Source: Gemmatimonadaceae bacterium
GTDB taxonomy: Bacteria; Gemmatimonadota; Gemmatimonadetes; Gemmatimonadales; Gemmatimonadaceae
Assembly: GCA_040901985.1 (NCBI GenBank)
Contig: JBBDYC010000003.1
Location: 28,283-92,282, forward strand
Length of the DNA: 64,000 bases
Reading direction: 5' to 3'
Part shown: one piece after another, positions 1 to 6,000 of the stretch
Numbering within the stretch: the first letter of the stretch is position 1
How the letters are laid out: the number at the start of each line of letters is the position of its first letter
Made by a program: the position numbers

Positions 1-3000
1 ATAGGTAGGCGGGCGCTGCTGCGCGCCACTGGGGCGGCCCTGGGGGCGCTTGGCCCCCGCGTTCCCCGCCACCGCGCTCGAACGCCGCGCACTCGCGCTC
101 GGCTGGGATCGTACGCGCGCGCTCGCGGACGGGGCGGGGCGGCTGCGCGGCTCGGCCCGCCTCGGTGTGGCAGGGCTCAACCCGGACGCCGGCGGCGACG
201 ATATCGCCCCGAGGGACTATTTCGTCGTGCGCGGTGGGGTGGACGTGGAGGCGGCGATTCCGGTGGGGACTTCGCGCGTCGTCCTGCGGACAATCGCGGC
301 GAGCGTGGGCGCGAGTGGCGCGCTGAGTCAGGGCGTCCCTGAGCAGGATGCCGTGTACTTCGGCGGTCCGGTGACTGGGCCGGGGTACGGTTTCCACTCG
401 CTGGCGGGCGAGTCGGCGGTCAGCCAGCGGGTCGAGTGGCAGTCGCGTATCCCGTTCATTTCCTTGGACTTAGGACGATTCGGCCGAGTGCCGTCCTCGC
501 TTGTGGTCGCTCCCTACGTGCACGGCGTCTGGCTCGACCGTCCTCTCCGGGGAAGCCCCGGCTGGCACCCGGCGGCCGGGATTGCGACGATTGGGATCTT
601 CGACCTCCTGCGATTCGACGTCTCGCGCGGCCTGCGCGACGGTCGCTGGCTCTTCTCCGTAGACGTGGCGCGCGAGTTCTGGCCCGTGCTCTGACGGATG
701 ATGCCTGTGCGCCGCCGCTTCTGGCCGCACCGGGGCTAGGGGGTATCTTTCAGGGCTACCGCGTCGAGGAAGTCACTGCCATCGGGAGTGGAATGGGGAG
801 TTCGGCCAAGTCTGCGCGCGACGAATGGTTGTTGGTCACCCTTGAGTCGCTCCTCACTGCGGAGCAGCTCGAGGAGTTGAAGGCCGCCACGGTGGAGAGC
901 CACTGGGAGGAGGTCCTGAAGCGCGCATGGGCCACCGACGACGCAATCGTCCAGGCGGTCGCCAAGCGGTTCCGGATGAAGATCGCCGACCTCAGCTCGG
1001 TGAGTCAGCAGGCGCGCGAGCTCGTCCCCGAGACGCTGGCCCGGCGCTACCGGATCGTCCCGCTCCTGATCTCCGATTCGATTCTCGACATCGCGACGTC
1101 CGATCCCCTTGACCTCGACTGCGAGCGCTCGCTTGCCTTCGCGCTCGGGCGCACGGTGCGGATGTCCATTGCGGCGCCGCGGCGCATCGCCGACCGGCTC
1201 GACGAGGTCTACCGCCCGGAGAACGTGATCGAGAAGATCCTCGAAAACGTGCAGGGGACCTACGACCTCGAGAGCATTGACGAGACGGCCGACGAGGCCG
1301 ACCTCGACATCAATGCGCAGCGCGCCGGCGAGCGCCCGGTGATCCAGCTGGTGGACCGCATCGTGGCCGAGGGCATCCAGTCGCGCGCCTCGGACATCCA
1401 CTTGGAGCCCGAAGAGGGCGGCGTGGCGGTGCGCTACCGCATTGACGGCGTGCTGCGCCAGGTGATGGTGCTCCCCAAGGCCGCCGGCGTCCCGCTCGTG
1501 AGCCGCGTGAAGATCATGGCGCAGCTCGACATCGCCGACCGGCTCCGCCCGCAGGATGGACGGGCGCGCGTGGCGGTGAGCGGCAGCCGCGTGGACCTCC
1601 GCGTCTCGACCCTCCCCGCCTCGCAGGGCGAGAAGGTCGTGATCCGCATCCTCGACCAGCGCTCGACGATCCTCTCGCTCGACGCGCTCGGCTTGCTGCC
1701 GGACGAGCACCAGCGGATCATGGAACTCCTGCAGGCGCGCGAGGGGATCGTCCTCGTCACCGGCCCGACCGGCTCCGGCAAGACGACCACGCTCTACTCG
1801 ATGCTGCGCACCGTGCAGGGCCGCGGCGTGAACATCGTCACGGTCGAGGACCCGGTGGAGTATCGGCTCCAGGGAATCGTCCAGGTGCAGATCAACGAGA
1901 AGGCGGGGCTCACCTTCCCGGCCGCGCTCCGCTCGATCCTCCGCCAGGACCCCGACGTCATCCTCGTCGGCGAGATCCGCGACAAGGAGACGGCCAACAT
2001 CGCCGTGCAGGCCTCGCTGACCGGCCACCTCGTGCTCTCGACGCTGCACACCAACGACGCGGCGAGCGCGGTCACGCGGCTGGTGGACATCGGGATCGAG
2101 AGCTACAAGATCGCCGCCGCGCTCAAGGGGGTCGTCGCCCAGCGACTGATGCGGCGGCTCTGCTCGCATTGCCGCGAGCTCGCCGTCGGTCAGGTGCCGG
2201 AGCGCCTCGAGAAGTATTTCCCCGAGCGCGGGACCCTCTACCGCGGCGTCGGCTGCGCCGAGTGCTCGATGACCGGGTATCGGGGCCGGCTGGCGATCGA
2301 GGAGGTCCTCCACCTGACCGACGAGGTCGAGCGGCGGATTGCCGGCAACGAGAGCGTGGAGCGGATCAACGACGCCGCGCGAGAGGGCGGGATGCGCTCG
2401 CTCTGGGAGTCGGCGGTGGACCACGTCCGCAAGGGCGAGACGACGATCGAGGAGCTGTTGCGCGTGCTCGAGGCGCCGCAGGAGGGCTCCAAGGCCTCGG
2501 GTCAGGCGTCGCGCGGGAGTACGCCGGCGGCGCCGGCGGCGCCGGCGGCCCTGACCGCCCCGACGATGGACGACGAGGAAGGCCCGTCGGGGCCCAGCGT
2601 CGGCCGCCGCCGCGGCACGCGCCACTCCGCGGCCGCCACCTTCACCGGCGACTCGTTCGAGCTCGTCGGCGACGAGACGCTCAAGCGTCCCGCCGCCAAG
2701 CGCGTGCTCCTGGTGGAGGACGAGGAGGCGCTGCGGCGCGTGATGAAGGACCTCCTCGAGCGCGAGGGGTTCGTCGTCTACGAGGCGGGCGACGGCGTCC
2801 TCGCGCTCGACGAGGTGGACCGCCTCGCCCCCGACCTCGTGGTCCTCGACCTCAACCTCCCGCGGCTCGACGGCTACGGCGTGTTGAGCCACCTGCGCGC
2901 GCGGCCGGCCACGCAGCGACTCCCGGTGATCGTCCTCACCGCCAAGGGCGACGAGGACAGCGAGGTGCGCGTCTTCGAGTACGGCGCGAGCGACTACCTC

Positions 3001-6000
3001 ACCAAGCCCTTCCGCGCCCGCGCCCTTTCCGCCCGCATCCATTCGCTTCTCGACCGGAAGGCCAAGTCGGCGCCGTGAGCGGGTGGCGCGCGTCCCACAC
3101 CGGAGCGTCCCAATGAGCGCGATCCCGGTCGAGGTGGGGGTGGTGGACGTCATCGTCTTTCGCGCGGTCCAGCGCGGCTGGCAGATCCTCGTCCTCCGCC
3201 GCGCCGCCGGCGTCCGCTGTGCCGGAAGCTGGGAGATGGTCCACGGGCGCGTCGAGCCGGGGGAGGCCCTCCCCGCCGCCGCGCGCCGCGAGCTCAGGGA
3301 GGAGACGGACCTCGTCGCCGAGCGACTCCTGTCGGTGACGATGCATCCCTTCTATCTCGTCCCGAACGGCACGGTGCAGCTGGCCGCAGTGTTCGCGGCG
3401 GTCGTCGCCGGCGACGCCAAGGTCACGCTCGGAGCCGAGCACGACCGCCACGGCTGGGTCACCCCCACCGCCGCGCGCCGTCGCTTCAGCTGGCCGCACG
3501 AGCGCCGGCACCTCGACGACGCCTACACGTTGCTCCGGACGCCGGCGGTGCACGACGTCCTCGAGGTGAAGGCCGACCGGTGATGCTCGCTCTGCGGCGC
3601 CGTCAAGGCGCGCCGCTAGTGTTCCCGGTCGGTGCTCGTCTTCAGGCGGTCCCCCGCGGACTCCGGCGCCCCGGGCTTCACCCGCACACTCTTCGCCGGG
3701 ATTCCCACGTTCACGTGGTACGGCCGCACGTCCTTCGTCGCCACCGCCACCGCGCCGACCATCCCCTGCTCGCCGACGTGGACGCCGGCGAGCACCGTCG
3801 CGTGGTAGGTGATCCGCGCCCCGTCGTGCAGCACCGTGGTCGCGTTCGTCACGTCCACCTGCTCAACGATGCTGTGCGTGTGCGAATAGATGTTCGCGTA
3901 GTCGCTCACCGAGACCTTGTTGCCGAGCCGGATCCCGCCGCGGTCGTCGAGCAGGACGTGGCGGTGGATCACGACGTCGTCGCCCACCTCGAGGTTGTAG
4001 CCGAAGGAGAACTCCACGTGCTGGAAGCACTTGAAGTTCTTCCCGACGCTCTTGAAGACGTGCGGCGCGAGCAGCCGCCGGAAACGCACGCCGAGGTCCA
4101 CGTTCTGCCCACCGATTGGCATCCGGTCAAACGAGTACCAGAGCCAGAGTAGCGGCTTCACCTTCTGGAAGCGCGCCTGGTCGCAATCACCGTAGAACTC
4201 CGGCTCCAGCGTCACGTTCCGCGGGTCGAGCGTGGCGAGTGCGAGGCGCGTGCCGAGCGGCGTGCGCTCGTCCGTCAGCGCCGCGTCGTAGCGCCCGGCG
4301 AGTCCCGGATACGAGAGCTCCACGAGCGTGTCCCGGCAGAGGACGTTCCGGTCCACGCCGGGGTCGGCGAGTTGCCGCTCCAGTCGCGCGAGCCAGGCCT
4401 CCTCCAGCGCGGCGGATGGGCGGGGGGGCAGGGGTCGTAGCGGGATGCGGGGCATTGGGTCGCTCGGGTTGCTGGTCTGCGAACGAAAATACGTTGGTCA
4501 GCGCTCCGCCACGACCAGCGCCACGACCGCCTCCGCCAGCGCATCCCGGCCCTCCCCGCTCACCGCCGAGAACGCGATGATCTGCTCGGGGTCGAGCTCG
4601 AGCGTCTTCGCCAGCGACGCCACGCGCGCCCGCACCGCACCCTTGGCGAGCTTGTCCGTCTTCGTCACGCAGATGAGGGTCGGGAGGCCGATGTCCGCCA
4701 GCATATCGAGCATCTGCCGATCGTCGTCGGTCGGCTCGCGGCGGATGTCGAGGAGGAGGACGATCCCGCGCAGCAGCGTCGAGCCGCGCAGGTACCCCTC
4801 GATCAGCGGCCGCCACTCGGCCTGGCGATCCTTCGAGACCTTGGCGTAGCCGTAGCCGGGGAGGTCGGCGAGCACGAACTGGCCGTTGACCGCAAAGAAG
4901 TTGATCTCGCGGGTCCGTCCCGGGGTCTTGCTCACCCGGGCGAACGCCTTGCGCCGCACCAGCGCGTTCAGCAGCGAGGACTTGCCGACGTTCGACCGTC
5001 CGGCGAAGGCCACCTCGGGGAGAACGTGCGTCGGGCGCCACCCGGTGGCGGTGGCCATCGGCCCGAGGAACTCGAGGGACCGGATCGGGAGCGGGTCGGG
5101 TGCCGCCGCGGCGGCGCCTGCGGCGCGCGCGGAATCCGGCGGGCGCGCCGGCGGGCGCGCGCTCACGCCTCTTTCTTGTGGCGCTTGGCGGCGATCTCGA
5201 GGAGCGGGGACTGCTTCTGCGTCACCGTGGCCTCCGTGACGCGCACTTCAATCACGTCATCGCGGCTCGGGAGCTCGAACATCGTGTCGAGGAGGAGTTG
5301 CTCGAGGATCGCCCGGAGGCCGCGCGCGCCGGTGCCGCGCTGGATGGCCTTCTTCGCGATGGCCTTCAGCGCGTTCTCCTCGAACGAGATCTGGACATCC
5401 TCCAGCTCGAAGAGCTTCTTGTACTGCTTGGTCAGCGCGTTCTTGGGTTCCTTGAGGATCTGGACCAGCGCCTCCTCGTCGAGCCCCTGCAGCGGCACCG
5501 ACACCGGGAGCCGCCCCACCAGCTCCGGAATCAGCCCGAAGCGGAGCAGGTCCTCTGGCTCCACCTCGCCGAAGACATTCGTCCCCGCCTTCGCCGCCTC
5601 GGCCTGCTTGACCTCGGCCCCGAACCCGATCTGGCGCCGGCCCAGCCGCGCCTCGATGATCTTCTCCAGCCCGTCGAACGCGCCGCCGCAGATGAAGAGG
5701 ATGTCCTTCGTGTTGATCTGGATGTACTCCTGCTGTGGATGCTTGCGGCCACCCTGCGGCGGCACGGAGGCGACCGTCCCCTCGAGAATCTTGAGGAGGG
5801 CCTGCTGCACGCCCTCGCCCGAGACGTCGCGCGTGATGCTCGGGTTCTCGCTCTTCCGCGCAATCTTGTCAATCTCGTCTATGTAGACGATCCCGCGCTC
5901 GCACTCGGCGACGTTGAAGTCGCCCGCCTGGAGGAGCCGGACGAGGATGTTCTCGACGTCCTCGCCCACGTAGCCGGCCTCGGTCAGCGTCGTGGCATCC

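Follow-up and report, generated by a model that had tools for sequence, protein, structure and literature searches.

We propose that P0001, a PilB/GspE-type ATPase with a C-terminal receiver domain, is probably a second extension motor of the one type IVa pilus machine in the cell, under the control of phosphorylation and not of c-di-GMP, and that the Nudix hydrolase gene next to it is a long-standing co-transcribed neighbour that became fused to the ATPase once or twice in related lineages. The two genes lie in the window analysed here, a stretch of 64,000 nucleotides from contig JBBDYC010000003.1 of a Gemmatimonadaceae genome (G000 in what follows; "the order" in our counts is Gemmatimonadales). 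The observations behind this proposal are the following: the ATPase and its receiver are intact and under purifying selection, the c-di-GMP motif is absent, a single platform, a single alignment complex and a single intact secretin were found in the genome, and relatives of the protein lie in pil operons or beside pilins or phosphorelay genes. By what route the pilus extension motor receives two-component signals is still an open question, and a motor with its own receiver would turn it into a one-protein experiment. A pilus motor with a C-terminal phosphorylation receiver is apparently an unstudied design, found in several bacterial groups. That said, while the design is common, it is a new wiring of known parts, and its N-terminal version has already been catalogued.

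Table 1. Coordinates of the features discussed, counted from the first nucleotide of the window.
Feature	Position	Strand	Basis
3' end of conserved upstream gene, DUF5686-like, probably outer-membrane protein	1..694	+	DUF5686 E 1.5e-6, below cut-off
PilB/GspE-type ATPase with C-terminal receiver, P0001, 761 aa	793..3078	+	ORF translation, Pfam; clade A of receiver-fused family
Degenerate MshEN_N helical bundle, ~aa 8-63	814..981	+	W12/W38 conservation, alignment to canonical PilB, helical in AlphaFold2 model
MshEN_C / N1 alpha-beta subdomain, aa 67-143	991..1221	+	PF05157 E 1.4e-14
ATPase core, aa 178-557: Walker A (1762-1785), Asp box, Walker B, His box, four-Cys site	1324..2463	+	PF00437 (T2SSE) E 6e-135
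Disordered linker, aa 566-632; short conserved F-E-L-V motif at 2656-2667	2488..2688	+	pLDDT <50
Receiver domain, aa 638-749; predicted phospho-acceptor D686 at 2848-2850	2704..3039	+	PF00072 (Response_reg) E 2e-30
Nudix hydrolase, P0002, 156 aa	3113..3583	+	PF00293 E 1.7e-17; Nudix-box R59, E60, E63, E64 invariant

The survey's finding that the genome encodes a second, orphan PilB-type ATPase is borne out: the reading frame is open throughout, its catalytic motifs are intact, and it is sited away from pilC. With its N2 domain and RecA-like core, Walker A, Asp box, Walker B and His box, P0001 belongs to the PilB/GspE superfamily (PF00437), and these catalytic motifs are kept in 36-39 of 39 sequences of its clade (clade A). 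Both marks that separate extension ATPases from PilT are present as well, namely the N1 (MshEN/GSPII) domain and the four-Cys site, whose residues C457, C460, C488 and C491 are invariant. The AlphaFold2 model (mean pLDDT 84) finds its best structural matches in GspE, PilF and PilB (Foldseek). In particular, P0001 shares the MshEN/N1, N2 and RecA-like architecture and the four-Cys site of PilB/PilF (Geobacter 5TSH/5ZFR, Thermus 5OIU) and of GspE (4PHT), with 41-48% identity and a TM-score of up to 0.93 over the core. Unlike these proteins, it carries a C-terminal linker and receiver, lacks the RLG motif, is encoded away from pilC, and scores below the cut-offs of both PilB (534.5 versus 675.65, TIGR02538) and GspE (559 versus 630, TIGR02533). 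The canonical PilB of the same genome, on contig C7, clears the PilB cut-off (708 versus 676), and in the tree the family of P0001 forms a branch separate from canonical PilB/GspE.

The survey had described the receiver as intact with a DD pair; the acidic pair, phospho-Asp, Thr and Lys are indeed kept, while the first pair reads ED here. Namely, the residues expected of a phosphorylatable receiver are all present in the sequence (E642-D643, D686, T716, K738-P739). In clade A, 36 of 37 receivers retain the phospho-Asp, as do all 12 in clade B and all 10 in clade C; among the 37 of clade A, Thr/Ser is kept in 35 and Lys in 36. The dN/dS of the receiver is 0.04-0.21 over six pairs. D686 would be phosphorylated by some histidine kinase or Hpt protein. 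A hybrid kinase adjoins the clade-A ATPase in 19 of 69 loci; no cognate kinase was found in G000, where this neighbour kinase has no close match (best full-length, 28%). Because the receiver hangs on a disordered tether of about 70 residues, phosphorylation would more likely govern docking, localisation or the release of a latch than catalysis. Perhaps this latch is the F-E-L-V motif of the linker, a pattern found in 30 of 39 clade-A sequences and in none of the 13 clade-B, 11 clade-C and 13 fused sequences.

At the other end of the chain, W12 and W38 are conserved at 90% or more in alignments A1 and A4 and lie near the starts of the two RLG motifs of canonical PilB, with which the N-terminus shares 30% identity. 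The c-di-GMP-binding form of MshEN is defined by two RLGxxLLxxG...LxxxLxxQ motifs, as given in PMC5013675; by pattern matching, none of 39 clade-A sequences has a motif of RLG type. Note that, according to the same source, imperfect motifs of this type can still bind c-di-GMP. The canonical PilB on contig C7 does keep its RLG, as had been claimed, and would be the c-di-GMP-gated motor, with P0001 as the kinase-gated one. The wording that the receiver stands instead of the c-di-GMP motif is valid no further than the Gemmatimonadales clades: in Desulfatiglandales and others of the family, an RLG-type motif and a receiver occur together, and loss of the motif is described in PMC5013675 as common among ordinary PilB/GspE proteins.

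Which filament would such a motor drive? This can be narrowed to the type IVa pilus. G000, G143 (a single contig) and G137 each encode one pilC, one pilM and one intact secretin, together with two or three PilB-type ATPases; the second secretin match in G000 is a piece of only 73 aa beside an IS-like element. Given one pilC, one pilM and one intact secretin in the genome, no machine other than the type IVa pilus was found for P0001, and a reading of the protein as GspE meets both a score below the cut-off and a genome with a single PilC/GspF gene and a single intact secretin, in searches that covered PilC/GspF and secretins but not GspL. That said, a member of the same genus (G001) has extra PilC-like genes and secretins, and a single machine is therefore not universal. 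P0001 would then hexamerise and dock on PilC/PilM as PilB does; in other PilBs, the N1 subdomain is inferred to contact PilM (PMC11656802). Against a shared machine, section 11 of that review notes that extension ATPases are often system-specific.

The relatives of P0001 point the same way. A Calditrichota ATPase-REC protein (L323) in the same group, with a support of 95, heads an operon that, judging from its ORFs, continues with pilD, pilC, pilins, pilM/N, O, P and Q. The two paralogous clades, B and C, sit beside pilins or kinases: a pilin lies within 4 kb in 11 of 15 scored clade-B loci, a single-TM protein with a pilin-like head is present in 12 of these 15, and a histidine kinase lies within 4 kb in 9 of 15 clade-C loci. 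The single-TM protein of clades B and C has no significant Foldseek match; in a wide structural search pilins fill 14 of the 15 top rows (best Z 7.7, rmsd 3.1, 80 aligned), which is moderate evidence. In the outside set, 9 of 17 fused ATPases have another receiver gene nearby, against 8 of 86 unfused ones; for pilC, the counts are 1 of 17 fused and 61 of 86 unfused. In clade A itself, none of 29 scored loci has pilus genes near the ATPase, and no copy of the pilin-associated single-TM protein turned up in G000; the pilus link of clade A consequently comes from relatives and from elimination. The neighbourhood scoring covered 29 clade-A, 15 clade-B and 15 clade-C loci, leaving out five clade-B loci with a degenerate Walker A pattern as well as G098 and G052, whose ATPases, both fused, were missed by the gene caller.

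Could P0001 be a regulator of the pilus rather than a motor? As a phosphorylation-gated competitor, brake or hetero-hexamer subunit, it would occupy PilC/PilM or canonical PilB. Its orphan site, its scores under all equivalog cut-offs and its separate branch would fit such a role, as would its dispensability in many lineages, the degenerate Walker A and His-box motifs of one clade-B lineage (L153) and the inter-ATPase contacts discussed in section 11 of PMC11656802. We consider this unlikely, given the conserved catalytic motifs of clade A and the Calditrichota relative, which is the sole ATPase within the 10.8 kb seen of a full pil operon. Even less probable, and in our view very much so, is that P0001 powers another, unrecognised exporter centred on the DUF5686-like outer-membrane protein encoded next to it. 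In 27 of 29 clade-A loci this upstream gene lies directly beside the ATPase and in the same orientation, and its cluster is present in 67 of 104 loci. However, it persists where the ATPase has been deleted (L219, L222) and is absent near clades B and C; what is more, PilB-type ATPases work through PilC/GspF-type platforms, and the block contains no inner-membrane platform gene.

Several known systems come close to P0001. TfpB of Acinetobacter baylyi is likewise a second, phylogenetically distinct extension ATPase and serves the same pilus as PilB, a precedent for two motors on one machine (PMC8213720); P0001 differs from it in score (461 versus a cut-off of 850, NF053534), and no receiver is mentioned for TfpB in the part of that paper used here. 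Fusions of PilB-type ATPases to a receiver or to a C-terminal sensory domain are catalogued in Supplementary Table 4 of Wang 2016 (PMC5013675), namely REC-MshEN-T2SSE (Geobacter metallireducens Gmet_3473) and MshEN-T2SSE-cNMP-binding (Desulfotalea DP2226), in rows that cite no experimental reference. The statement that no PilB-receiver fusion is in print thus needs correction: Gmet_3473 has its receiver at the N-terminus, and it is the C-terminal arrangement, MshEN-T2SSE-REC, that is missing, along with ATPase-Nudix, from that table. Two-component signals reach the extension motor also through PilG/PilH of Pseudomonas and through PATAN-REC proteins such as PixE of Synechocystis, but those are separate proteins, whereas the receiver of P0001 is within the motor chain. 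In PixE, it is the PATAN domain and not the receiver that is described as binding PilB1, and a 2024 review (PMC11656802) states that no direct PilG/PilH-PilB interaction is reported in P. aeruginosa. The same review asks why cells keep several PilB homologues.

The architecture had been put forward as specific to the order, which our searches contradict: it is also seen in five other phyla, and G187, the one such genome among 46 from other orders, carries two paralogues with a fused receiver (E 2e-143 for the better one). Clade A itself was found in the order only. The C-terminal receiver design recurs in 114 of the best 150 clusters (50% identity), and the closest cluster in the atlas counts 3005 members. 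In Opitutaceae and Woesebacteria, what looked like ATPase-receiver fusions are separate genes, and a search with alignment A3 matched mostly ordinary PilB/GspE loci. No title among the 69 clade-A loci names a cultured strain, and in family f1 the ATPase gene is deleted or the receiver lost in 21 of 31 genomes.

The downstream gene is, as had been reported, a Nudix hydrolase (PF00293), with a Nudix box and its catalytic glutamates. Its likely start is the ATG in Table 1, which follows a GGAG and lies 34 nt past the ATPase stop; the alternative is a GTG at 3083. Within positions 1-5000, no sigma-70-like promoter was found, and one terminator-like match occurs, at chance level. The best matches of P0002, all weak, are RppH-like, Ap4A hydrolase, NudG and NudB enzymes, its NCBIfam subfamily scores are all far under cut-off (NudB, NudG, MutT, RppH and Ap4A hydrolase considered), and its PDB matches (E 8e-12 to 2e-9) are spread across several subfamilies.

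Are the two genes tied in one functional module, as the survey held? In such a module the Nudix enzyme would hydrolyse a nucleotide signal (such as Ap4A) or remove from the motor a nucleotide that inhibits it, perhaps one held by the Trp-containing N-terminus; fusion would have fixed a partnership already in place. Indeed, in 56 of 69 loci the genes share a strand and lie no more than 3 kb apart, both the clade-A ATPase and the Nudix are found only in the order, and the fusions are real and in frame (15 of 15 loci L112-L126, plus L229), in 16 genomes of five genera rather than the three genera first counted. Both halves of the fused proteins are under purifying selection (eight pairs; dN/dS 0.02-0.18 for the ATPase, 0.02-0.25 for the Nudix); as regards the fused Nudix, this is equally compatible with a functional and with a neutral link. 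The fusion tree needs two changes, and a single fused clade is rejected when the unfused L204 is included (p-AU 0.008). However, with L204 and L166 omitted, a single origin is no longer rejected (p-AU 0.54), so that the fusion may be a single event, and most fused proteins keep a Met at the start position of the free Nudix, as a simple deletion would leave. The Nudix would have been fused once or twice upon deletion of the receiver in part of one family. Moreover, each gene persists without the other: of 105 genomes of the order, 17 encode the ATPase with no Nudix detected, and 7 encode the Nudix but not the ATPase. The Nudix adjoins the ATPase in 35 of 69 clade-A loci, his genes intervene in 20 of 69, no Nudix lies near any of 15 clade-B or 15 clade-C ATPases, and the upstream membrane-protein gene is as tightly linked as the Nudix (27 versus 25 of 29). 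We thus regard the module as improbable, and the Nudix gene seems to be a neighbour of long standing rather than a partner that the ATPase requires.

A bolder version, which we hold to be quite doubtful, would have the Trp-bearing, MshEN-derived N-terminus bind a nucleotide other than c-di-GMP (e.g. a dinucleoside polyphosphate) that is destroyed by the adjacent Nudix. The motor would then integrate a C-terminal phosphorelay with an N-terminal nucleotide switch, lineages with the fusion would have given up kinase control in exchange for a tethered hydrolase, and motors of the wider family would come with pilins of their own and take their place in a common pilus machine in response to a signal. 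A role of the Nudix as a substitute for HisE, considered for its site between hisH and hisF, was rejected: G000 retains the Nudix, yet hisB, hisH, hisF, hisI and hisE were not found there, and in each of the four his-operon genomes tested, HisI and HisE domains are encoded elsewhere and a HisA-like gene is present as well. In the f1 genomes, a his cluster of different order is located elsewhere.

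The fusion of a PilB/GspE-type ATPase to a C-terminal receiver, as found in P0001, is a real and conserved variant of a known motor, and constitutes the solid part of the survey's finding.

Extent of the ATPase-receiver protein P0001, its domains and the adjoining Nudix gene (window nucleotides or residues)
Feature	Position	Strand	Remark
P0001 ATPase gene	793-3078	+	761 aa
P0001 MshEN	aa 67-143		Pfam
P0001 T2SSE	aa 178-557		Pfam
P0001 receiver	aa 638-749		Pfam
Nudix gene P0002	3113-3583		directly after ATPase gene

The AlphaFold2 model of P0001 (25-row alignment, mean pLDDT 84) has GspE, PilF and PilB as its top structural matches and is disordered over residues 566-632, and the protein scores under the cut-offs for PilB, GspE and TfpB, the second extension ATPase of Acinetobacter baylyi (PMC8213720). 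In the 39 sequences of clade A, to which P0001 belongs, Walker A, the Asp box and Walker B were each matched throughout, the His box in 36 and the four-Cys site in 38. The RLG c-di-GMP motif was matched in none of the 39 and the phospho-Asp of the receiver is kept in 36 of 37, which agrees with what the survey had said of a missing RLG motif and intact receiver motifs. Receiver dN/dS (0.04-0.21 in six pairs, with dS near saturation in some) is close to that of the ATPase core. W12 and W38 are at least 90% conserved over clade A and the paralogous receiver-fused clades B and C, and the ATPase tree sets all three apart from canonical PilB. The closest named loci are, by title, Gemmatimonadaceae, and automatic JGI names already name both domains.

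Among the papers listed by the literature searches, no title or abstract opening describes a C-terminal PilB-receiver fusion or a PilB-Nudix fusion; subscription papers, such as response-regulator censuses, lay outside the search and may list the architecture. Supplementary Table 4 of PMC5013675 catalogues MshEN-T2SSE-cNMP and REC-MshEN-T2SSE, the latter an ATPase-receiver fusion like P0001 but with a different domain order. The claim that no PilB-receiver fusion is in print is thus too broad, although the C-terminal order, MshEN-T2SSE-REC, is indeed absent from that table. Neither "receiver" nor "fused" appears anywhere in the main text of the review PMC11656802.

Besides P0001, the window's own genome, G000, encodes one PilB-type ATPase, within a pilB-pilT-pilC run on contig C7; it lies above the TIGR02538 cut-off and, as the survey had it, keeps RLG-type motifs. 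The same genome has four PilT/PilU-like proteins, six GGDEF matches, a single PilC/GspF gene, a single PilM and a single intact secretin, which lies in a pilMNOPQ run. PilC/GspF, PilM and intact secretin are likewise single in G143 (one contig), which has ATPases of clades A and C plus one more, and in G137, which has those of clades A and B plus one more; extra platforms and secretins occur in G001 and G031. A Calditrichota relative with an "EDDWL" N-terminus, in the same group (support 95), is the first gene of a complete pil operon. For these reasons the type IVa pilus is the most likely client of P0001, by elimination for clade A. That P0001 serves a separate export system is very improbable. 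No pilin was found near the clade-A ATPase in the 29 loci scored. Elsewhere in G000 (C2:155476-156926; L391), a 73-aa secretin C-terminal fragment adjoining an IS-like transposase pair is a relic of a second secretion system.

We believe that P0001 is probably a kinase-gated second extension motor, sharing PilC, PilM and PilQ with canonical PilB, which would be the c-di-GMP-gated motor on the same machine. P0001 would form a hexamer and a kinase would phosphorylate its receiver, which, given the long tether, would govern docking or localisation rather than act by direct allostery. That P0001, with its ATPase motifs matched as described, is instead a regulator or brake appears unlikely.

About as unlikely is that ATPase and Nudix hydrolase form a functional module, a link graded weak against the solid receiver fusion. 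Among the matches listed (69 clade-A loci, found by receiver alone), the Nudix gene is adjacent in 35, separated by his genes in 20, farther off in 1 and not seen within the flank in 13. In 82 hand-picked genomes it is adjacent in 37, his-separated in 14, fused in 14, far in 1 and not seen in 16, three of which have it 2-7 kb off. Each gene is also kept alone: among 105 genomes of the order Gemmatimonadales, 85 of them with a detected Nudix, 17 ATPase-bearing genomes of family f2 had none found (many being one tree branch), and seven of family f1 have lost the ATPase but still carry the Nudix in the same block.

ATPase-Nudix fusions are present as the survey reported, with an extent of 16 genomes and 5 genera, all within f1, rather than 7 and 3. 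Both halves are under purifying selection, the junctions vary in length, the Met at the former Nudix start is kept in most, and one fusion has apparent receiver remnants. Placing all fusions in one clade is rejected when the unfused locus L204 is included (p-AU 0.008) and not once L204 and L166 are left out (p-AU 0.54); the fusion arose in one or two events, as had been cautioned. Because other f1 members have lost the receiver without becoming fused (L111, L204) or have lost the entire gene, the fusion is consistent with a deletion that removed the receiver from a coupled pair of genes.

The ATPase was sought in 151 genomes, 105 in the order and 46 in other orders, including the unpublished G077 (from f2 and with a Nudix match too) and G182 (from another order); G077 and the likewise unpublished G088 entered one other search. 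Every one of the 72 f2 genomes, and each of the two from f3, gave a best match of E 4.2e-171 or better (loci extracted for only some). The 31 f1 genomes comprise 10 with ATPase-receiver, 10 with ATPase-Nudix, 1 whose ATPase carries neither domain, 1 whose sole copy is divergent and lies elsewhere, and 9 without such a match (G067 being counted by joining two contig pieces). Clade A was not found in the 46 genomes of other orders; one of them, G187, carries two receiver-fused clade-C copies. In two genomes, ATPase and receiver lie on separate ORFs (L128:5418-7669, L130:5176-7415); the split is either natural or due to faulty assembly. L193:5626-8340 (genus g4) reads as a divergent 905-aa paralogue with ATPase, degenerate receiver and C-terminal GAF-like domain.

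In clade B, a single-domain receiver gene comes next in 15/15 scored loci, 12 of which also encode a single-TM protein and 11 a type IV pilin; in clade C, a histidine kinase lies within 4 kb in 9/15 loci, and Hpt-like genes, by ORF reading, accompany several. The single-TM genes occur together with ordinary pilin genes next to ATPases of both clades. Their products (L151:7793-8781, L155:4031-4992, L157:4505-5460, L165:2518-4037, L202:4361-7102, L191:1389-2335) start with a helix on the cytoplasmic side, have an outer domain that resembles a pilin (best Z 7.7, to PilE) and lack a prepilin motif; Pfam gave nothing for the two tested, and a Sumerlaeota look-alike (L237:7449-7991) did not match their profile. 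In one clade-B lineage (L153:5890-8184 and related f3 loci), Walker A, Asp box and His box are altered and the receiver is intact, so that, judging by these residues, it is probably a catalytically dead motor.

When 1.84 billion representatives were searched with a profile, a C-terminal receiver was present in 114 of the 150 best, and 9 of these 114 match the strict RLG-type pattern once or twice. Named fusion loci come from Thermodesulfobacteriota, Planctomycetota, Omnitrophota, Sumerlaeota and Calditrichota, with Elusimicrobiota added from the atlas. The fused proteins group apart from most canonical PilB/GspE, with modest deep support (FastTree, 4 changes). For 103 ATPases from loci L230-L389, which are neither independent nor drawn at random, pilC is present at 1/17 fused versus 61/86 unfused, and another receiver gene at 9/17 versus 8/86. 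With labels read from sequence, Desulfatiglandales have an Hpt-like gene immediately 5' of the fusion gene, and Sumerlaeota the order kinase, REC, REC, ATPase-REC, single-TM protein, pilin, pilin. Proteins of ~1000 aa (P0125, P0128-P0131, P0134, P0138 and others) contain a tandem pair of PilB-type ATPase domains but lack a receiver.

G000 (99.97% complete) yielded no hisB, hisH, hisF, hisI or hisE, and this organism is likely a histidine auxotroph. hisB was detected in 37/61 family genomes (the unpublished G228 included). In f3, a HisB-like gene between ATPase and Nudix (L013:879-1475, L016:876-1469, L130:4557-5105) has apparently lost the usual metal-binding histidines; with HisA lacking a good match in G003, it is possibly a repurposed remnant. 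Upstream of P0001, a DUF5686-like gene (window 1-694; L001:10482-12977) is interrupted shortly before the window begins by a stretch of Ns and a change of frame; this is probably an artefact of the assembly, since relatives have one ~680-aa ORF. The same conserved block (32 loci) contains an FHA-GAF-adenylate/guanylate cyclase gene (L001:7543-9117).
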